Shown piece after piece: positions 405 through 14,965 of a DNA stretch of 64,000 nucleotides. Made by a program: the position numbers and the translations under genes. Under the pieces are notes generated by a model, which saw nothing but the letters and a program-made list of their open reading frames with translations, ran no database searches and had not been told where the DNA came from. Source of the stretch: a virus; the IMG/VR virus record IMGVR_UViG_3300019776_000961, positions 96,001 to 160,000 of that record; one strand, given 5' to 3'. Each line of letters begins with the position of its first letter. Within the stretch, counting starts at the first letter, position 1.

Positions 405-2612
405 GTTAAGCTTCCAGCGGCCGCCTCGTAGTCCGCCTTGTGTATTTGCACCAAAAATAGTAGTAGGATTGCTTATACTATTAAATGTATTATTAGTATT
501 TTTTAGAGAAAAATCTTTTTGTGAAGTTGCTTCAGTAAAATCCTTAATATTATCTAAATGATCGTTTGCTTGCTTTTGATTAGTTACAAGCTGAGCGAGC
601 TTATCATTCATCTGCTGCAGCTGTGTTGTCATACTATCAAGCGTTTTAGAGGCAGGTGAATTTTCAAGTAAGCTAGGTGGTGTAGCAAGATCAACAGGAG
701 CTGGAGCTATTAATTTAGCAGAGCTTGATAGGCTAATTTTTGTATTATCTGTATCTTTTAATTGTTCACTAATTTCATCCTTCCGCGTCTTGAGTCCCTC
801 AATTTCTTGTTTTAAGCGTTCACGTTCTGCTGCTAAATCATCATACAACTCGCCCAAAATATGATCAAATGACGCATTGGTACGTGAACCCTTAAGTGTA
901 CTCTCCGGGGCATTGCCAAATTGCTTACTAAGACCTGCTATCTTTTCATTTATTTTGTCAATTTTACTCTGTGCAATACCTATATCAATATCTTGTTTTT
1001 CTACTCTTAATTCCTTTCGACGTTTATCGAGTTTTACTTGTTCAGCTGGACTTGTAGCAGCCTGACGTGCTTTAAGAATACGGTCTTGCTCTTCTGTATT
1101 AGTATTTGTCTGACTATATCTTTTGTTAATAACGGCTGTGGTTGCAGCACCTGCAATAGCGCGTTGCTTTTCCATTAACGTCATATTATCAGTGATATGC
1201 AGATCTTTAAACGCATCGGTTACATTTAATACAGTTCTTAACATTCCACTAAAGCCTGGACTAATTTTATCAAGCTTATTAAGACCAGCAGACTGCTTAC
1301 CATAATCACTACTAAAGATATCACCGATACAGCTTATTAAGTCAACTGCCTGACCAATTATCTCACCTATACGAGCAAAAAATGATGTAACCTTTTCAAT
1401 AATGTTTTTAATTGCTACTTTTGCAATATCACCAAGATTAACTTTCTCACCTGGTGCGAGATTCTTTGCAGCTTCCTGAGCAAAAGATGATTCAAAAATA
1501 TTACCTGTAAGTGCTGTAAGTGTGTCAGATATTGGACTGAAGATTGGAAAATATTTAGATAAGATCTCAAATCCTTTTATCATGCCGTCTCTGTCACCGG
1601 CTGATACAAGCCCAAACACTTCTGTAATATGTTTGAATGTATCACTAATACCTGAAAAGGAATCGGTCACCATTTGTTTTATATTACTCCATACAGACTG
1701 AAAAGAAATATTTTTAAAGGTAGAAGTTAATCCACCAGGTGCAAGTATTTTCTGCTTTGCACCTTTACCTCCTAATATTTCTGCGATAAATTCTGAACCC
1801 GGTATTGCAAAAGCAAGATGCTTAAACCCTTCTTTCCAGTGTCCGCTTGTAAATGCCTTAAATGCATCATACACATCAAAGAACCTTCCAATAAATGGTA
1901 ACCCTCTAAGCCATTCACTAATCGTTTTATCTTGTGGTTTAATTTTGCTTACCAAACCTAAAAGTGTGTTTTTGATACCACCTTTTTTAATACTTTCAAA
2001 AAGATTGCGTACACCGGGTAGCTTCATAGCACCATATGTAAGTGCTGTTATACCACCAAATAATAATAAGAATGGGGTAAGAAATTTAAATATACCACCT
2101 TGACTCTGTTTATCAGATTTTTGACTTTGTACTTCCTTAAGAAGTGATCCAATCTTATTATCAGTACTTGTTATTCTTTGTAGCATTAGCTTTTGCTGCT
2201 TAAGCTGTAGCTGTTGTGCCATCAAAGGTGCAGGATCTCTTAGCTCTTTCTTACTTACGGCATCTGATCCTGTCTTAGTAAGAAAAGTGTCCTGTAAAGC
2301 TCTAAATCCACTAGTTACATTTTTTGAGAGTAATGTTGTCGCTCTTGCTTGTTCCTTTTGACTATTGTTGAGCTGTTCGGTTGACTCTGCAACTCTTTCA
2401 GCGGATTTTGTATTAGTTGATGCATCAGATGCAAATTGATCAGAAATTACCTTTAAACGATCTTTTATCGTTTTAAGATAGGTATCGGATAACGTGTTAA
2501 GCCTATCGCCGATAACGCGTTCTAATTCAGCTATAGCACTTATTTGCTTATCTTGCTTGCTAGCAAGATCGCCGAACACACCATTTAACTGATCATAGGT
2601 AATGCCGTCCAT
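402..2612 (-). CDS. Tape-measure-like protein (gp29 position)
   Basis: 736 aa with coiled-coil ends and a hydrophobic segment (FLTPFLLLFGGITAL); directly after baseplate hub genes; late box upstream. Confidence 0.6.
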   Translation of the reverse strand: MDGITYDQLNGVFGDLASKQDKQISAIAELERVIGDRLNTLSDTYLKTIKDRLKVISDQFASDASTNTKSAERVAESTEQLNNSQKEQARATTLLSKNVTSGFRALQDTFLTKTGSDAVSKKELRDPAPLMAQQLQLKQQKLMLQRITSTDNKIGSLLKEVQSQKSDKQSQGGIFKFLTPFLLLFGGITALTYGAMKLPGVRNLFESIKKGGIKNTLLGLVSKIKPQDKTISEWLRGLPFIGRFFDVYDAFKAFTSGHWKEGFKHLAFAIPGSEFIAEILGGKGAKQKILAPGGLTSTFKNISFQSVWSNIKQMVTDSFSGISDTFKHITEVFGLVSAGDRDGMIKGFEILSKYFPIFSPISDTLTALTGNIFESSFAQEAAKNLAPGEKVNLGDIAKVAIKNIIEKVTSFFARIGEIIGQAVDLISCIGDIFSSDYGKQSAGLNKLDKISPGFSGMLRTVLNVTDAFKDLHITDNMTLMEKQRAIAGAATTAVINKRYSQTNTNTEEQDRILKARQAATSPAEQVKLDKRRKELRVEKQDIDIGIAQSKIDKINEKIAGLSKQFGNAPESTLKGSRTNASFDHILGELYDDLAAERERLKQEIEGLKTRKDEISEQLKDTDNTKISLSSSAKLIAPAPVDLATPPSLLENSPASKTLDSMTTQLQQMNDKLAQLVTNQKQANDHLDNIKDFTEATSQKDFSLKNTNNTFNSISNPTTIFGANTQGGLRGGRWKLN

Positions 2613-2618
2613 TCAAAA

Positions 2619-2625
2619 TATTTAT
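2619..2625 (-). promoter_or_regulatory. Late promoter box ATAAATA
   Basis: 6 nt before the tape-measure ATG. Confidence 0.65.
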
Positions 2626-2635
2626 TCAAAATATT

Positions 2636-3394
2636 TTAAACTGTAAAAAAGCTTCCGTCTATATCAATATTAATATCTTCAATCGCTGTGAATCTAGCTT
2701 CAAATTCTCGATGTGTTTTAATGAATTCGAGAATCTTATTAATTAAAGTAGATGGTAATTTTTCTACAATAGCGATTCTATCTGATGCTTTCGTCTGAAA
2801 GAAATTAATTGTAGTATTATTTTCACCGTTAGTAATTTCTATATTACTAATGAACTTAGTAAGTTCATATACAAATAATTCACTAATAACTGTTTTAAAA
2901 TCATCTGTACTTGTACCAGTCTTGTTAAGAGCGAATGTATTTAGCTCATTGTCAGCTATAAGCGTCGGGGCAGTAACTGTTACTCTTATATTATTATCTT
3001 CATAGACTGCATTGAGAGGCTGTAATGCTGTGTCTATTGAAGGGATGTCGTTAAGTTTGTTTGTTAAATCGTATGTCTTATCATTAACCTTGTATTGACT
3101 ATCAAGACTACGGGCTCGAAAAGCTAAGGCAATAGCTGACCGGTCAAAAGTATAGAGTAATTCTGTACTGACGGTATCGAGAATATTTTCCTTTATTACG
3201 CTAAAGAAGAATGTATTAAAAGAAAGCTTAGTAAGACTTTCGTCGATAGACGACTTAAGAAGTCCTTTTTGTTGCTTTAAATTTAAAGGTTTGAATTTGA
3301 CTGTACGCTTTAAGGATGGCACAAATACGTCAAAACCATTCTCTGTATTGAGTGTATCTAATTGCTTTAGTACATCGCTGATATTACTGCTCAT
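2636..3394 (-). CDS. gp26: Baseplate hub subunit, gp26-like
   Basis: N-terminal VFVPSLKRTVKFKPLNLKQQKGLL and C-terminal GSFF resemble the T4-like gp26 family. Confidence 0.7.
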   Translation of the reverse strand: MSSNISDVLKQLDTLNTENGFDVFVPSLKRTVKFKPLNLKQQKGLLKSSIDESLTKLSFNTFFFSVIKENILDTVSTELLYTFDRSAIALAFRARSLDSQYKVNDKTYDLTNKLNDIPSIDTALQPLNAVYEDNNIRVTVTAPTLIADNELNTFALNKTGTSTDDFKTVISELFVYELTKFISNIEITNGENNTTINFFQTKASDRIAIVEKLPSTLINKILEFIKTHREFEARFTAIEDINIDIDGSFFTV

Positions 3395-8396: not shown

Positions 8397-8996
8397 TTAG
8401 AAACTTTCTATATCAGAAGTCACAAGAGACACTAATAATTGCGAGTAGCTATATGTAAAAGATGATTCTATCTCAGTACCGTCCCTGTAACTGTACTCTA
8501 TGCCACCGAGAGACGTAGGAAATGCGTCAGTGTACTTAAATTCTACTACTCTCTTATTGTATTCATCGAGTGCAAAAATAGAAATATTAGTTCTATATTC
8601 GAAGTTTGATGACTTACCTGATGTTATATTATTGGCGTCATAAACACCTGTTTTATCATGATTAAGCAGATTAAGCCAGCTGTAAATAGTCCAATAATTA
8701 TTGAATCTATTATCAACAGTAAAACTTACAGTATTAGGTGCAAAGACGTTACGGGTATGGCTTGAAGCAGCAAGAGTCTGACCAGAATATCTTATATCAA
8801 CAGGAGGTATTTCAATAGACGGCACTATTGCACCGAAAACAGAAAACTTAATACTATCAGGTATGACGGTATTATTGTTACGGTTGAAATTTGATTCATG
8901 GTTTTTGAAACATTTCGGTAGATCAAAAGCCATGAGAAATTTATCTTTTCTCGACTTATTGAATGGACTCTGTGTATAGACTGCAGCGTTTGACAT
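8397..8996 (-). CDS. gp3: Tail completion / sheath stabilizer, gp3-like
   Basis: FTVDNRFNNYWTIYSWL and FKYTDAFPTSLGGIEY motifs typical of gp3/tube fold; start overlaps the terminase C-half stop (TAATG). Confidence 0.65.
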   Translation of the reverse strand: MSNAAVYTQSPFNKSRKDKFLMAFDLPKCFKNHESNFNRNNNTVIPDSIKFSVFGAIVPSIEIPPVDIRYSGQTLAASSHTRNVFAPNTVSFTVDNRFNNYWTIYSWLNLLNHDKTGVYDANNITSGKSSNFEYRTNISIFALDEYNKRVVEFKYTDAFPTSLGGIEYSYRDGTEIESSFTYSYSQLLVSLVTSDIESF

Positions 8997-10549
8997 TAGT
9001 ATTGGGAGTTGTTAAAGAATTGCCACCCTTGTGATTCAAGATCCTTAACTTCAGAAAACTCATTTGAGTCATCAGCTGGAAATAAAATCGGCAAGGGCAT
9101 TGATGCATCTCCATTCGATCTTTCGTTAGAGTAAATCGAAGTTGGATTTACAAAATATTTAATGCCATAATCGAGTGGTCTTAACTTTAATGGCTTTTTA
9201 TTATCATCATACTGTTCAATTTCAAAGTATTTTTCAACTATTTCATCATCAAGAATCATAAGAGCCCATATAAGACTCATGACTCTATCATCCCAGTTAC
9301 TTGCACCAGGTCTTGCAGCCCAAGTACCGTTTGGGTATCTAACAAAGTTTTTGAGTTCGTTTAATGTATTTAAATTACGTATCTTCAAGCATTTTAACTC
9401 ATTAACCCAGTATCTCATGTTAGTTACACCTTTATATTTGGTGTTTGTGTGTGCAATAACACCTGGTTTATTAAAGGCTAATTTACCTGCTTTTGCACCA
9501 TAAGAAACAATATTTTCATATTGATGTGTTTGCTTAAGTTGGTCGACAACTTGTGCACCACAGTTATTACGCTCAATTAATGCAAGTGGATTACCCCAGT
9601 GTTGAAGAATCTCGTAAAGTTTTGTAGTGAAATTAATAGGACTAATATTTCTATTATGATACTCAGCTACTTGTTTTATGCTTCTTAAATCGGTTATATC
9701 AAGAATCTGTACTACAGAAGCAGCCTCACCGACACCTTCACTTATATCAACTCCTGCTACATATATTTTTTCTTGATTTGGTTCTTCCCATAAGAGATAG
9801 TGTCCTTCATCAAAAACAAATGTAGGTTCAGCACACTCGGTCTTTAGTTCATCAAAAAGATGTTCATTTACGGCACTTTCACCTGTCTCAAGAAACACGT
9901 TTCCAAACTCTTGATCAAACGCATCCCTACTTCCGAGCTCTCTTATAGTATTCTTCTTCCATTTTTCATCTCTACCAGGGACCTCCCACCAGTCGACCTT
10001 TTCAGCATGCCATCCATTATGTTTCTCCGGATCAGGCTCAAGTGCACCAGTATAAAGTTCGTGAAAGAGGTTTCCGGTGCCGTTAGGTGTTGATGCGACA
10101 AAGATTTTTGATTTTTTAGATGATGAAATAATAGGGTAAACAGATTTCCAGAAATCTTGTACCATATGATTATCAATAAATGCCAACTCATCAAGAATAA
10201 GGCATTGATGACTCAATATATCATTTGCAAAATATCTATGATTATCCTTGACCTCTAGCAGTTCATAGACAGGTTCATTGTTTGTATATACATCAACAGT
10301 GTTAACTTTAATACCTGAAAACAAAACATCACCTTTTTTTATATCCTTTGCGTATACCCACTCGTACGTATTGTTTTTTATAATTTTATGTTTAGAGGTA
10401 CATACTAATTCCTTACCATTCGATAGAGTGAATTTAATTTTATTCTCATTTGTACCTACGATAATACCCTTAAAGTCCTTAAATCCCTCATCAGTCAATA
10501 CTTCGAAGGTATTATTTTTAAAAATTTTATAATTTGTAATATCAGCCAT
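8996..10549 (-). CDS. gp17: Large terminase C-terminal half fused to a 115-aa IntC split-intein fragment
   Basis: After ...ILSHQ comes CLILDELAFI (Walker B), STPNG, FDQEF, GVDISEGVG, DDRVMSL nuclease motifs. Confidence 0.95.
   Translation of the reverse strand: MADITNYKIFKNNTFEVLTDEGFKDFKGIIVGTNENKIKFTLSNGKELVCTSKHKIIKNNTYEWVYAKDIKKGDVLFSGIKVNTVDVYTNNEPVYELLEVKDNHRYFANDILSHQCLILDELAFIDNHMVQDFWKSVYPIISSSKKSKIFVASTPNGTGNLFHELYTGALEPDPEKHNGWHAEKVDWWEVPGRDEKWKKNTIRELGSRDAFDQEFGNVFLETGESAVNEHLFDELKTECAEPTFVFDEGHYLLWEEPNQEKIYVAGVDISEGVGEAASVVQILDITDLRSIKQVAEYHNRNISPINFTTKLYEILQHWGNPLALIERNNCGAQVVDQLKQTHQYENIVSYGAKAGKLAFNKPGVIAHTNTKYKGVTNMRYWVNELKCLKIRNLNTLNELKNFVRYPNGTWAARPGASNWDDRVMSLIWALMILDDEIVEKYFEIEQYDDNKKPLKLRPLDYGIKYFVNPTSIYSNERSNGDASMPLPILFPADDSNEFSEVKDLESQGWQFFNNSQY
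10205..10549 (-). mobile_element. Split intein C-fragment (IntC, 115 aa) ending His-Gln, with +1 Cys
   Basis: VLTDEGFKDF, block B CTSKH, DIKKGD, block F VYELLEV, block G YFANDILSHQ/C; resembles atypically split TerL inteins. Confidence 0.92.
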
Positions 10550-11264
10550 TTTGTTTCTTTATTGCTCTTGTACCTGTGCCGCGGAACCAACCGAGCGGTA
10601 TACATGTACTAGAATTCACACGCTTTATTTCTTTAGTTACTGGATTATGTATATAGATACATCCTATCCCGCTGCGCAGTTTTTTAACTTCATGTGAAGC
10701 ATTAAGCGCTGCATCTGACATCTTTTTTCTTGCATGTTCTGAACGCTTCATCCCTGTGTGGGTAGTAGCGGTTTTACGGATCTTATTCGGATTTTTGTTT
10801 TGTGGATTTACTCTTGAACGTCCACGAAGTGATTCAGATATTTTTTTAGCTCTTTCTTCTGTATATACTTCTTTAAGCATTTTTTGCTTCCATTCGATAT
10901 TCTGCCATTGTTTCTTCTTAAAGGATGAAAAATCTTTACGATGTTGATCCGACCATTCACATCTACCGTACCCACCTTCACGTAAATTATATGTATCTGG
11001 TCTATTAATATACTCTTTAGTTACCAGACGACGCTCTTCTTCAAGAGCTTCAATATAGGTATTAAATTGAGAAAGTATTTCTTTTTTAAACGCGTCTCTA
11101 CCATATTTTTGTATAGCGTGTTTAATAATCTTACCTGAGCCCATGTAACCATCATCCAAATTATCTGTTCTATGTACACCTATATATTCCATTCTAGTTA
11201 CCATATTTGTTAATCGGTAAATATAATTATATGTTCTGTTTATATTAGGATTATTAGGGCCCAT
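10542..11264 (-). mobile_element. Free-standing GIY-YIG homing endonuclease (Seg-like) between the terminase halves
   Basis: YIYRLTN...EYIGVH...YMGSG...AIQKYG...F.KEIL...YNLREGG catalytic domain plus NUMOD3-like HTGMKRSEHARKKMS; likely start ATG 11264; stop overlaps the IntC start by 8 nt. Confidence 0.92.
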
Positions 11265-11275: not shown

Positions 11276-11312
11276 TGTATAACAATTAATTCTGGAGGAA
11301 TTTGCATTACTT

Positions 11313-11972
11313 TTATTCATCTACAATTTCTAAAAACATTTCACCGTTATCTTTGAGTATCTCTGTAAGATCGTGCATACTAATTTGAAATTCTAATAAT
11401 GTTTTTTTGTCTCTCAGTGTCACCGTTGTGTTACCACCCACGCAATTACAACTATCACCACGACCAGCATCACTACTTGTAGTGCTAATACCTATACTTG
11501 AACCATTGGCAAGTGACATTGATGTCTTGCCGTATTCTAAAACACCAGGCTTAAGGTAGTTTGGTAGCTTCTCATAAGCCATACGCACACGCTTAAAAAT
11601 ATTAATAGCGGTTTGCTCTTTGTTAGCGACAATTAATATACGCTGATCTTCTTGAAAGCATGCGACCCAAAGTGCATATATCGTCATTAATGTTGTTTTA
11701 CCAATCTGACGTGAAGCTAATAAACATACGAATCTATTGTCTCTTAAGCTTCTTAAAATCTTTTTCTGGAAAGAATGTAATCTAATTTTTATCTTACCTT
11801 CATCAAGGTTTGTAATGAAGAAGAAGTTTTCAGCAAAGTATAAAATGTTTTTTGTACATTTTTTAATGTCTTCAACCCACTCCGGGTTATCAATATAATT
11901 GAATGTCGCGTCCTGTGTAGGGAGTGACTCATTACCCAGATAATAACCTGTTTTCTGCTTTTTAGTAGGCAT
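11313..11972 (-). CDS. gp17: Large terminase N-terminal ATPase half fused to a 43-aa IntN split-intein fragment
   Basis: LHSFQ, Walker A ASRQIGKTT, ANK, GRGDSCN, then CVGGNTTV intein block A and a stop. Confidence 0.95.
   Translation of the reverse strand: MPTKKQKTGYYLGNESLPTQDATFNYIDNPEWVEDIKKCTKNILYFAENFFFITNLDEGKIKIRLHSFQKKILRSLRDNRFVCLLASRQIGKTTLMTIYALWVACFQEDQRILIVANKEQTAINIFKRVRMAYEKLPNYLKPGVLEYGKTSMSLANGSSIGISTTSSDAGRGDSCNCVGGNTTVTLRDKKTLLEFQISMHDLTEILKDNGEMFLEIVDE
11316..11444 (-). mobile_element. Split intein N-fragment (IntN, 43 aa)
   Basis: CVGGNTTVTLRD...ISMHDLTEIL block A starting at Cys codon 11444-11442, just before where Walker B should be. Confidence 0.9.
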
Positions 11973-11991: not shown

Positions 11992-12816
11992 ATGAACTTA
12001 ACACGTACAATGAATGAACTCGGTGATTTATATCTCGAGAAGATGACAATTCCTAATGATACCTTTGAAGTACAGACAGAGAAAAAGGTAAAGCTAGCAA
12101 AAGGCGACAAGAAAGCTTTTGTTGGTAAGAAGTCAGGTCCTGAAGATGCTGATGGCTTTAAAAAAGACATCATTGATCCGAAAACAGCAAAAGCTGACAA
12201 TTATTATGAGCCTAAGAAATTCTCACAAAATAATGAAAAAACAGAAACACAGAAGATAAATACTTTTATGAACAAATCTATTTTTGACAGACTTTACGAA
12301 GAGGTAATGCTCGAAAACGACATGCATCTTCCCAATCAAGACGATTCAACAGACGCTGAAGCTCTCGGTCTTCCAGGTGAAGCCGGTGGTGCAGAGGTTG
12401 ATGGAGAAGAGGTAACAATTACACTTTCACGTGATCTCGCAGAAAAGCTTCATGAAGTTCTCATGGGTGTTCTCGAAGCACACGACGATTCAGCAGCAGC
12501 TGATGAAGACCTCGATGTTGAGGGTACAGAAGATGAAGAGTGTGATGAAGATAATCAGACTTTCGGAGAGGCTACAGATATCGAGCCACTTTCAGATGAG
12601 CACGGTAAGAAGCTCATCGCTAAGGGCAGCCAGAAGGTCCCTGGTACAGTAACATCAGAAGTAGATAGCAAAGAAGGTAAGGGCGATACACAGGGTATCG
12701 TTAACGACGGTAAGCCACAGCCTCTTAAGAAGGTAGTAGGTGGCGGTGTTCCATCAAACAAGGTTGCAGGTAATGCAAGTAAGGTTGGTAAGACACTCTT
12801 CGGTGCAGCTAAGTAA
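11992..12816 (+). CDS. Acidic late protein, possible head core/internal protein; probable nested start at 12268
   Basis: Very D/E-rich; late box at 11978 and internal late box at 12256; followed by a terminator. Confidence 0.6.
   Translation: MNLTRTMNELGDLYLEKMTIPNDTFEVQTEKKVKLAKGDKKAFVGKKSGPEDADGFKKDIIDPKTAKADNYYEPKKFSQNNEKTETQKINTFMNKSIFDRLYEEVMLENDMHLPNQDDSTDAEALGLPGEAGGAEVDGEEVTITLSRDLAEKLHEVLMGVLEAHDDSAAADEDLDVEGTEDEECDEDNQTFGEATDIEPLSDEHGKKLIAKGSQKVPGTVTSEVDSKEGKGDTQGIVNDGKPQPLKKVVGGGVPSNKVAGNASKVGKTLFGAAK
12256..12262 (+). promoter_or_regulatory. Intragenic late box ATAAATA
   Basis: 5 nt before the in-frame ATG 12268. Confidence 0.55.
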
Positions 12817-12883: not shown

Positions 12884-13222
12884 GTGAATAGCTTTAAAAG
12901 TCATTTTAATCTTAACAATAACAAAGGTGATATAGTCAAAAAGCGTAGACACATGGGATTAGTTCCCGATGTTTCAACACATACAAAAACAGGTGGTAAA
13001 ACAGTACCTGAAATGTGGAAAGCTAAGCACTCTAATCAAAAAGTAAAATCATTACTCAATAATGGTAGCGGTCACTTCACGCTTAATGATGCAGAATTAA
13101 AGCAAATAGAAAAAGAGTTCCCTCCTGTTAAATATGATCCACATCATCCTAAGAAGCTCGGTAATACTGGCATTACGCTTTATTATGATGAAACATCACA
13201 AGCGCCAGCTATAAAGATATAA
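12884..13222 (+). CDS. Hypothetical late protein
   Basis: 112-aa ORF, GTG start 5 nt after TAAATA. Confidence 0.65.
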   Translation: MNSFKSHFNLNNNKGDIVKKRRHMGLVPDVSTHTKTGGKTVPEMWKAKHSNQKVKSLLNNGSGHFTLNDAELKQIEKEFPPVKYDPHHPKKLGNTGITLYYDETSQAPAIKI

Positions 13223-13223
13223 T

Positions 13224-13952
13224 ATGGATGTAAAGGATTTCTACACAGGTGGTGGTACTACAGGTATTTACCCGCAGACATTTCAAGATAATGAATGCTT
13301 TAGAATAACAGATAAAGCAAATAACGGCGCCGAGCGCTTGCTTCAATCTAATTACTGGAGAGAGCAAATAAACCTATATGGTCAAAAAGCTAACTATTAT
13401 GTTAATAACACGACATTATCTGGCTCGGATATGCTCTATGGTGAGCATCCAACTCAACGATTTTCACCTCCACAAGCTATAACAGTGGCTCTTAATCTTA
13501 ATGAAAATGCTTTAATGCTTAGTAAATATGGCTTGTTATCAGAAGATGAGGTTACAGCTTTTGTACATATAAGTGCATTTTATGAAACATTTGGACCCGG
13601 TGCAGAGCCAAAATCAGGTGATGTATTTCAATTATCTGAATACGGTAATGATAGACCGGGTGATAGAAACGGTAAAATGTTTGAGATAACAGAACGTCTG
13701 GACGAAGATGCAGCGACTATTAATGTATTAGCTGGTCACTATGTATGGTTAATTAAGGCTAAGCGTTTTGAATACTCCTTTGAGCCAGGTATTCCACAAG
13801 AAGCGGGTAATAATCAAGTTTTTGACGATACACAAAATACAACGGTATCAGGTGCTAATAAACCGTACACAAATAGCGTTGATATAGATTCAAAACAGAT
13901 CTTTGATTATAGTCTTACTGACTATTCAAATGTCTACGGTGGGTACTATTAA
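13224..13952 (+). CDS. gp14: Neck protein
   Basis: EQINLYGQKANYY, DMLYGE, SKYGLLSEDEVT, EPKSGDVFQL, FEITER match the gp14 pattern. Confidence 0.85.
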   Translation: MDVKDFYTGGGTTGIYPQTFQDNECFRITDKANNGAERLLQSNYWREQINLYGQKANYYVNNTTLSGSDMLYGEHPTQRFSPPQAITVALNLNENALMLSKYGLLSEDEVTAFVHISAFYETFGPGAEPKSGDVFQLSEYGNDRPGDRNGKMFEITERLDEDAATINVLAGHYVWLIKAKRFEYSFEPGIPQEAGNNQVFDDTQNTTVSGANKPYTNSVDIDSKQIFDYSLTDYSNVYGGYY

Positions 13953-14263
13953 TCAGCTCGATTCTTATAAATCGACTCATAATCGGGTAGTTGTTCTTTA
14001 CGGAACTTTGCTATAACAGCATCCGCATCTCTTGTAGATGGAAACTTTATCTGATGTTGTGTCATGTCTGATCTATTGAAGTGGTATACAAACACATCAT
14101 CTTCCTTTGTTATACGTTGAAGCTGATAAATGTGCCCAGCTTCAAATAACAACTCATATGGGGAACGCGATTGACGTGGTGTTGAAGAGCTTATTACCCT
14201 CTGCTGACCAGGTTGTATACCACGATGGTCTACCGTAAAGCTGGTTCCAATAATGTAATGCAT
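13949..14263 (-). CDS. Hypothetical protein
   Basis: ORF in a tightly packed minus-strand run. Confidence 0.6.
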   Translation of the reverse strand: MHYIIGTSFTVDHRGIQPGQQRVISSSTPRQSRSPYELLFEAGHIYQLQRITKEDDVFVYHFNRSDMTQHQIKFPSTRDADAVIAKFRKEQLPDYESIYKNRAD

Positions 14264-14553
14264 TTCTTTTGTGGTATGATGTTAAACTCAGCGTATTCTG
14301 TATTGTTTTCAAGATCATTAAGATCTGCCTTCATTGTTTCAAACCTCTCGTCGATATATTTTTGAAATGCTAATGACTTGATCCAATCGATTTCCTTATT
14401 TTGTAGACGGTGACCGAATTGATTCATCTTATTGCTTACGTGCTCAATTGCTTCTAGCAAACAAAGCCAGCGTGTATATTCGTCACTCGTCATGTCAGTG
14501 ACTTTCTTACCATTCGCGAGCATTGTTAATTTTCTTGATTGTTTCAATTGCAT
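14230..14553 (-). CDS. Hypothetical protein (true start uncertain)
   Basis: ORF in the packed run, overlapping neighbours. Confidence 0.55.
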   Translation of the reverse strand: MQLKQSRKLTMLANGKKVTDMTSDEYTRWLCLLEAIEHVSNKMNQFGHRLQNKEIDWIKSLAFQKYIDERFETMKADLNDLENNTEYAEFNIIPQKKCITLLEPALR

Positions 14554-14965
14554 ATCCGAGTATTATGTATGAAATCTCCTCAACGTCAATAACTTTTTTA
14601 TGTTTGTTTAATGCAGACAATAGTTCGACCTGTGAGTCGTAAAGGTTAATAATTGACTTAAAATAAACTGCGTAAAGATTAATAATTTCTTTTTTATAAT
14701 TGTCGTCAATATCTGATTTTTTTATTGACCTTGCAACTACTTCTGAAAGTTGATTGAAGAGGCCTTTAAGAAAGGTTGCTTCAGATGCAACAGGCTTTAG
14801 ACACATTAATCCTTCATCGAACTGTCTAACAGCTTCAAAAGGTAATCTTTGTTTTATAAAATAGATGATACTATCTATATCAGGTTTTACAGGCTTCGAC
14901 AGATTTATCAAACTATCCGCCTGTCCGTCTGTTGTTAACTGTTTAATACTATCAGGTAGATTCAT
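14507..14965 (-). CDS. Hypothetical protein
   Basis: 152-aa ORF coupled to the upstream gene. Confidence 0.6.
   Translation of the reverse strand: MNLPDSIKQLTTDGQADSLINLSKPVKPDIDSIIYFIKQRLPFEAVRQFDEGLMCLKPVASEATFLKGLFNQLSEVVARSIKKSDIDDNYKKEIINLYAVYFKSIINLYDSQVELLSALNKHKKVIDVEEISYIILGYAIETIKKINNAREW

Follow-up and report, generated by a model that had tools for sequence, protein, structure and literature searches.

The window analysed here is a stretch of 64,000 nucleotides (nt) from the IMG/VR virus record IMGVR_UViG_3300019776_000961 (positions 96,001 to 160,000 of that record), and it contains a “fractured” T4-type terL gene of an uncultured aquatic T4-like phage. The locus consists of three open reading frames (ORFs), all on the minus strand: two encode the parts of the terminase TerL, each fused to one half of an intein, and the third, standing between them, encodes a homing endonuclease. 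In coordinates of the window, the features are as follows.

11445–11972, minus strand: TerL N-extein, 176 amino acids (aa), with Walker A SRQIGKT and the tail ...GRGDSCN; Pfam Terminase_6N, 32.2 bits (cut-off 22).
11316–11444, minus strand: N-terminal intein half (IntN), 43 aa, with Cys1 and block A CVGGNT...; from the translation, stop codon at 11315–11313.
10542–11264, minus strand: free-standing GIY-YIG (SegE-like) homing endonuclease, 240 aa from ATG; Pfam SegE_GIY-YIG and phrog_314.
10205–10549, minus strand: C-terminal intein half (IntC), 115 aa, with blocks B, F and G, fused to the C-part of TerL; from the ORF, homology to CatC, AlphaFold2 and Foldseek, and conservation.
10399–10397 (Thr51) and 10390–10388 (His54), minus strand: IntC block B, T51-S-K-H54.
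10264–10262 (Glu96) and 10240–10238 (His104), minus strand: IntC block F, V-Y-E96...H104.
10210–10208 (His114) and 10207–10205 (Gln115), minus strand: IntC block G, S-H114-Q115.
8996–10204, minus strand: TerL C-extein, 402 aa and the stop codon, with Cys+1, Walker B CLILDE, the rest of the ATPase and an RNaseH-like nuclease; Pfam.

The first ORF (11972 to 11313, 219 aa) comprises the N-part of TerL and IntN and reads ...GRGDSCN/CVGGNTTVTLRDKK...IVDE up to its stop codon (here and below a slash marks the splice junction). The 517-aa ORF at 10549 to 8996 carries IntC and the rest of TerL, with Pfam matches to Terminase_6N at residues 117–225 and Terminase_6C at residues 266–431. Both characteristic stretches of IntC lie within this ORF: the codons CAT CAA TGC at 10210–10202 (CAT 10210–10208, CAA 10207–10205, TGC 10204–10202) encode His114-Gln115/Cys+1, and GTC TAT GAA CTG CTA GAG GTC at 10270–10250 encodes V-Y-E-L-L-E-V, with Glu96 at 10264–10262. 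The initial annotation of this locus had read the His-Gln/Cys codons and VYELLEV exactly so. The product of the middle gene matches Pfam SegE_GIY-YIG (PF19835) with 31.6 bits (cut-off 25) and the homing endonuclease family phrog_314 with an E-value of 6e-39; a TTG codon at 11285 is a possible alternative start. The stop codon of this gene overlaps the start codon of IntC (ATGGCTGA, 10549–10542, minus strand), which suggests translational coupling between the endonuclease and the IntC–TerL-C gene.

The joined exteins read GRGDSCN-CLILDE. They align, residue for residue, with RGNSFA-MIYIDE in Salmonella phage SEA1, a T4-like phage in which this stretch is uninterrupted, and the alignment places the insertion site directly before the Walker B strand. 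As predicted from this comparison, removal of the intein leaves a colinear TerL with a restored Walker B motif.

The terminal CAA codon recurs in independent assemblies. A Logan contig that stems from an independent study (X2; 12,358 nt, at a depth of about 19) covers positions 9900–10600 with mismatches solely at 9947, 10100 and 10364, and is identical to the window over 10202–10270; a contig from a second sample (X3) covers 10172–10465 with zero differences. Runs X4–X12 contain only small shares of the window. The read support of CAA, about which the initial annotation had been cautious because a true AAC or AAT might have been miscalled, is thus confirmed by the contig of the independent study. 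The last IntC codon, compared across 46 distinct DNA sequences of homologs, was CAA in 40, CAG in 4, AAT in 1 and AAC in 1; this set was fetched by a pattern including xQC, and therefore it shows synonymous variation and not the frequency of Gln. The residue is apparently maintained through synonymous change (CAA/CAG).

IntC is related to known inteins in both sequence and predicted fold. In a phmmer search against PDB sequences, the best match was CatC (6DSL_B; E-value 7.5e-8 over 109 residues, approximately 31% identity), followed by the gp41-1, RadA and VidaL inteins, and the alignment to CatC reaches the last residue (...ndilsHQC in the query, ...NGIVSHAC in CatC). The AlphaFold2 model of IntC, built on an alignment of 36 natural homologs, had a mean predicted local distance difference test (pLDDT) score of 87. 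With this model, Foldseek also returned 6DSL_B as the best match (template modelling scores 0.77/0.79, 117 columns); the significant matches, extending beyond the top 30, were all inteins or bacterial intein-like (BIL) domains, with 2LCJ at rank 28. We conclude that the element is an atypically split HINT-domain intein in a fractured-gene arrangement. The split falls between blocks A and B, leaving 43 aa in IntN and 115 aa in IntC, the latter with TSKH, VYELLEV...H and SHQ. ORFs, motifs and homology all agree with the earlier description of the element as a naturally and atypically split intein with Gln before Cys+1 and Glu at the usual block F Asp.

The residues expected to take part in catalysis are conserved. 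Cys1 was present in every resolved related IntN tail (more than 60 viral loci), and all of these tails, 31–51 aa long, start as ...N/CVxG. In two alignments spanning 29–93% identity, Cys+1 was invariant and T51, H54, H104 and Q115 were each conserved at 90% or more. Cys+1 is, furthermore, specific to the intein: relatives lacking an intein at this insertion site have Met or Ile at this position (AMIYIDE in SEA1, S-ILVIDE in locus L058). A conserved catalytic set together with an intein-linked Cys+1 favours an active intein over a mere docking module. Block F retains the His at position 13 (F:13, H104) and has Glu96, not Asp, at position 4 (F:4). F:4 is commonly Asp, Cys or Trp and belongs to the less conserved positions, and Gln is an accepted variant of the C-terminal Asn (PMC4031507).

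We therefore regard it as highly probable that the locus encodes an active class 1 trans-splicing split intein, in the only terL gene found, and that cyclisation of Gln115 is the third step of its chemistry. Gln-ended inteins are known to splice by Gln cyclisation (PMC4031507; PMC8175363). In the proposed mechanism, the two TerL fragments would be made separately, and the 43-aa IntN would dock onto the 115-aa IntC, completing the HINT fold. Cys1 would then form a thioester, Cys+1 would take over the N-extein, and Gln115 would cyclise to an aminoglutarimide, where Asn normally gives a succinimide, thereby releasing the intein. The subsequent S-to-N shift would yield an intact TerL of 578 aa (...GRGDSCN-CLILDE...).

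Several observations weigh against such an assignment. The Pfam model Intein_splicing (PF14890) scores IntC at 27.5 bits, below its gathering cut-off of 35.8, although this is offset by the matches to PDB entries in sequence and fold. In the archaeal DNA polymerase II (PolII) inteins, cyclisation of Gln proceeds slowly (PMC4031507; PMC8175363). The 193-kb contig, about 88% complete, yielded a single terL, so that another copy may lie in the missing part. Finally, in a few members of the Gln clade (P0030, P0046 and L022:1260-1622) Gln replaces the block B His (CTPKQK, CTPEQK), which reviews rank as the best conserved residue of inteins; such members may have lost activity or may rely on another residue, and not every member of the clade would need to be active.

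The terminal Gln is widespread among relatives of this intein. A search with IntC in a collection of 5.8 billion proteins gave 32 further proteins. The 31 close homologs (44–92% identical over IntC) all have xQ/C-h-h-h-D-E ends except P0010, a contiguous (fused) intein at the same site that ends SKN/C, while the distant 32nd homolog, P0033, ends SHN/S. One protein, P0028, combines a split Gln-ended IntC with a second, contiguous intein that has a canonical end (VYDL...SHN/C). To cover more distant relatives, 1.84 billion cluster representatives were searched exhaustively with phmmer, which identified 788 family members, and intein domains were mapped in the best 150 of these 788. In T4-type terL genes, inteins of this family occupy four or more positions: behind the GK of Walker A, immediately ahead of Walker B, immediately behind it (DE/CAF) and at ...CEFLGS (junction before Cys). 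Among representatives at 50% identity, the site before Walker B has 26 Gln-ended and 52 Asn-ended domains, and all other terL sites together have no Gln end, 130 Asn ends and one mis-aligned domain. Gln ends thus account for 26 of 78 representatives at the site before Walker B, or 57 of 110 domains with close homologs added, and every Gln end among the mapped domains is followed by Cys. The initial annotation had implied that such an end is rare, while allowing that it might prove common among split TerL inteins; at this site it is common. A large group of such inteins has inherited and conserved the terminal Gln, and the intein in the window is one ordinary member of it.

Multiple insertions within one gene were also seen. 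In uncultured T4-like phages, up to three or four inteins of the same family stand at distinct terL sites (P0041, P0048, P0049, P0056, P0062, P0074, P0077 and P0089), and in some of these genes a second intein begins right behind the DE of Walker B, so that the motif is reduced to a micro-extein of 6–7 residues (e.g., CVFVDE/CIGGDS).

A change from Gln to Asn requires two substitutions (CAA/CAG to AAT/AAC), with Lys or His as the intermediate. Neither intermediate occurred as the last residue of the inteins analysed, and switching between Gln and Asn is therefore expected to be rare. In the intein tree most Gln members form one clade, and six Gln domains at the same site fall outside it. In the C-extein tree, one TerL clade has Gln-type inteins in 34 of its 36 members. 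Inteins of this type are found in several further TerL lineages as well; some closely related TerL proteins differ in having Gln or Asn (P0066/P0062, P0128/P0146, and P0010 within the SNQ group), and well-supported branches force at least nine Gln/Asn changes. This pattern in the host gene fits a mobile element moving between terL alleles, repeated switching, or both. The terminal Gln is most likely inherited and under purifying selection, in a large and mobile clade of terL inteins confined to one insertion site in uncultured aquatic T4-like phages.

All Asn-ended members nested in the Gln clade (P0010, P0042, P0057, P0058, L026:3480-3866 and L036:2438-2800) have a penultimate Lys and end SKN/C or TKN/C, and several of their Gln-ended neighbours end SKQ/C. 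Reversal to Asn seems to have occurred only on a Lys background. As long as redundant sequences were counted, the penultimate His seemed markedly relaxed in Gln inteins, but this idea was dropped because the difference was not significant between representatives at the same site (16 of 26 and 38 of 52, p = 0.31).

Glu at F:4 appears to be a second trait of the clade, usually but not always accompanying Gln. Among representatives at the site before Walker B, Glu F:4 was found in 19 of 26 Gln-ended and 2 of 52 Asn-ended domains (Fisher test 1.6e-10, not corrected for phylogeny), and most members with both Gln and Glu belong to one clade on the intein tree. Exceptions run both ways: nine domains combine Gln with Asp, and Asn is combined with Glu in P0010, P0076, P0113, L026 and L036. 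When Gln was compared in phylogenetically independent pairs with three features (Glu, the split state and a penultimate residue other than His), only two contrasts lay on supported branches, and the test had no power. Under parsimony, on a tree from which the columns of both traits had been removed before it was built, the terminal position (G:7) changes 9 times and F:4 changes 10 times; in four cases both change on the same branch, where 0.6 such cases were expected (P about 0.0006), three of the four lying in one weakly supported group (P0042/P0057/P0058/P0061; support 40). This would correspond to about two independent co-changes, namely one at the base of the clade and one return to Asn with Asp. 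The two traits are thus separable, and their coupling is no more than suggestive. A physical rationale for co-variation of F:4 and G:7 is given by the Pho (Pyrococcus horikoshii) RadA intein, in which Asp F:4 hydrogen-bonds to the terminal Asn and restrains its cyclisation (PMC4031507); the Gln-ended PolII intein of Pyrococcus abyssi (Pab) has Ser at F:4 and not Asp (PMC8175363). It is conceivable, though we rate it as doubtful, that Gln and Glu, with side chains one methylene longer than those of Asn and Asp, form a co-adapted pair that gates C-terminal cleavage at the site before Walker B.

The split architecture was surveyed in 62 viral-contig loci with both halves readable, where the IntN tails were found by homology search. 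At about three quarters of them (approximately 46 of 62), an ORF of about 250–300 aa separates the halves, mostly of the same SegE-like GIY-YIG family as in the window; at L005 a small HNH takes the place of the GIY-YIG. At about a quarter (approximately 14 of 62), the halves are 2–74 nt apart and the endonuclease is gone, yet the gene is still split, which argues that trans-association remains obligatory. Loci with a 2–74 nt gap and no endonuclease include L018, L019, L024, L053, L054–L059, L067, L073–L075, L007 and L045. At L050, L051 and L052 the IntC frame is open far upstream, and the endonuclease appears to be fused in frame to IntC. On the Logan contig of L005, the split terL is closely preceded by an additional ORF resembling terL (2158–3120), which begins with a ribbon-helix-helix domain (Pfam RHH_1 and Terminase_6N).

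Among 50,697 deposited phage genomes there was no close relative of this intein and no member of the Gln type, and 59 records matched with at most 39% identity. When the locus was compared with deposited phages by megablast, there was no match, the window's own record possibly being excluded from that collection. The representatives examined were Escherichia phage PD112, Shigella phage JK32, Salmonella phage SEA1, Yersinia phage TG1, Pseudomonas phage PspYZU05, Shewanella phage Thanatos-2, Vibrio phage VmeM-32, Campylobacter phage CP30A and Desulfovibrio phage 7757. Their inteins lie after Walker B (DE/CAFI...), in each case with Asp as the F:4 residue and SHN at the end; VmeM-32 has an extra intein after Walker A, with Asp F:4 and SHN/T. 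The terL inteins of SEA1, PD112, JK32, TG1, PspYZU05 and CP30A belong to the same family as the intein in the window and share its short-N/long-C split, and SEA1, PD112, TG1 and PspYZU05 also have an endonuclease-sized ORF between the halves. In contrast to the window, where the insertion is before Walker B with Glu F:4 and SHQ, the inteins of cultured phages follow Walker B, have Asp F:4 and SHN/C, and reach no more than 39% identity to IntC. Since their hosts are viable phages, an atypically split terL evidently works in nature, in this case only in the canonical form.

The described inteins AceL-TerL, GOS-TerL and Cat resemble that of the window in having a T4-type terL host, a split between blocks A and B, and Cys+1. 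Their halves have 25–37 aa (IntN) and 104–122 aa (IntC), compared to 43 and 115 aa here. CatC, with approximately 31% identity, has Asp F:4 and an SHN end (crystallised as SHA), where the window has Glu F:4 and SHQ. AceL-TerL presumably occupies the ...N/CEFL site and not the one before Walker B. All members seen of the clade have Cys1, whereas GOS-TerL has Ser1, with an IntN of 37 aa and an IntC of 115 aa (table in PMC11766414). A likeness of P0068, which has Ser in block B, to GOS-TerL was considered and dropped, the P0068 locus having Cys1 and not Ser1.

The gene arrangement recalls the fractured genes of Dassa et al. (2009), with two ORFs bearing the intein halves and a free-standing GIY-YIG gene between them, and one terminase locus in that study had an unusually long C-part (PMC2677866). 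The catalytic set given there includes a C-terminal Asn (PMC2677866), whereas the clade described here has Gln. No Gln-ended split intein was found in the searchable literature, the coverage of which did not extend to the descriptions of GOS-TerL and Cat; as far as could be verified, characterised split inteins all end in Asn. Gln before Cys+1 in a class 1 intein is otherwise known from the ribonucleotide reductase (RNR) of Chilo iridescent virus (CIV) and from the PolII inteins of P. abyssi, P. horikoshii and Methanoculleus (PMC4031507; PMC8175363). These share with the intein in the window a non-Asp residue at F:4 (Ser in Pab PolII) and, presumably, the third step, in which Gln cyclises to aminoglutarimide. 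They differ in being contiguous, cis-splicing inteins that reside in other host proteins and are only distantly related to ours (2LCJ at rank 28 of the Foldseek matches), whereas that of the window is naturally and atypically split, has Glu F:4 and comes from a phage of non-thermophilic aquatic samples.

As to why the clade ends in Gln, the reading that survives best is that of a frozen accident: the same splicing mechanism, with Gln tolerated, having no special role and kept by the two-nucleotide barrier, and with Glu F:4 as a lineage marker. This account denies adaptation, and we consider it a serious candidate, if somewhat short of an even chance. It is consistent with the grouping of most Gln members in one clade, with the scarcity of independent Gln/Asn contrasts on supported branches (two), with the exceptions in both directions noted above (Gln with Asp, Asn with Glu), and with the absence from the terminal position of Lys and His, the intermediates on the return path, which cannot cyclise. 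It is less easily reconciled with the confinement of Gln to one site (0 of 131 domains elsewhere), with the six Gln domains that lie outside the main clade at that same site, and with the excess of same-branch changes in G:7 and F:4, three quarters of which come from the one weak group.

The alternative is adaptive tuning, in which Gln, aided by Glu F:4, slows or gates C-terminal cleavage, serving as a timer of terminase activation or as a guard against self-cleavage, before IntN docks, of the long IntC, in which nearly all of the active site lies. Gln-ended domains at the site are more often split than Asn-ended ones (20 of 26 compared to 25 of 52; raw p = 0.017, not corrected for phylogeny), and both the restraining effect of Asp F:4 in Pho RadA (PMC4031507) and the raw association of Gln with Glu are in line with this possibility. 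However, many atypically split terL inteins use Asn with Asp, including those of coliphage, Salmonella, Yersinia and Campylobacter phages; the associations with split state and with Glu lack correction for phylogeny; and CIV RNR demonstrates that Gln need not be slow (PMC4031507). The suggestion in the initial annotation that slower branch resolution acts as a timer of terminase activation finds no support; published Gln inteins may be slower or faster than their Asn counterparts, depending on the intein: the Pab and Mma (Methanoculleus) PolII inteins are faster with Asn, and CIV RNR performs better with its native Gln (PMC4031507). Adaptive tuning is unlikely in our assessment, and we lean to the frozen accident.

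Far less probable is an assembly without splicing, in which the intein halves stay in place and serve solely to keep the two pieces of TerL together, or in which the gene is decaying. There is a precedent in the phage enzyme Aeh1 NrdA, the fragments of which reportedly assemble without splicing (PMC3045599); Gln is, besides, the poorer cyclising residue in some inteins, and a few members have lost the block B His. Nevertheless, conservation of Cys1, Cys+1, the block B Thr and His, the block F His and Gln down to about 30% identity would be unexpected in an element that is not catalytic, a hydrophobic residue of Walker B gives way to Cys+1 solely in the presence of the intein, and a retained domain of 158 residues would sit directly ahead of the Walker B strand of the ATPase core. 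A sequencing or assembly error concealing a true AAT or AAC is a negligible prospect, given the independent contig identical over the junction and the dozens of homologs that keep Gln with both of its codons in use.

Around the split terL, the order of genes on the minus strand from 8996 to 5841 is terL, tail tube (199 aa, phrog_45) and tail sheath (838 aa, phrog_23); in T4 the sheath (gp18) is ahead of the tube (gp19). On the other side, and divergent from terL, lies a highly acidic ORF of 274 aa (11992–12816, plus strand) without a PHROG match, and the ORFs at 12884–13222, 13949–14263 and 14507–14965 are likewise without one.

Atypically split terL inteins such as AceL-TerL, GOS-TerL and Cat are valued protein-labelling tools, because their short IntN can be synthesised. 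The clade described here combines the short-IntN split with a terminal Gln and mostly Glu F:4, and the natural variants with Gln and Glu, Gln and Asp, Asn and Glu, and Asn and Asp at one site could be used to test the cooperation between the last residue and block F, and also whether Gln reduces premature C-terminal cleavage. If Gln and Glu were indeed a co-adapted pair, the clade would be a natural experiment on the coupling of the third step to the earlier ones and could supply orthogonal split inteins that combine low leak with a short IntN; in the phage, the pair would block self-cleavage of IntC before IntN docks, or time the maturation of the terminase. For the biology of these phages, the analysis indicates that, in aquatic T4-like phages, mobile inteins occupy four or more sites within terL, and that packaging of their genomes is predicted to depend on protein trans-splicing.

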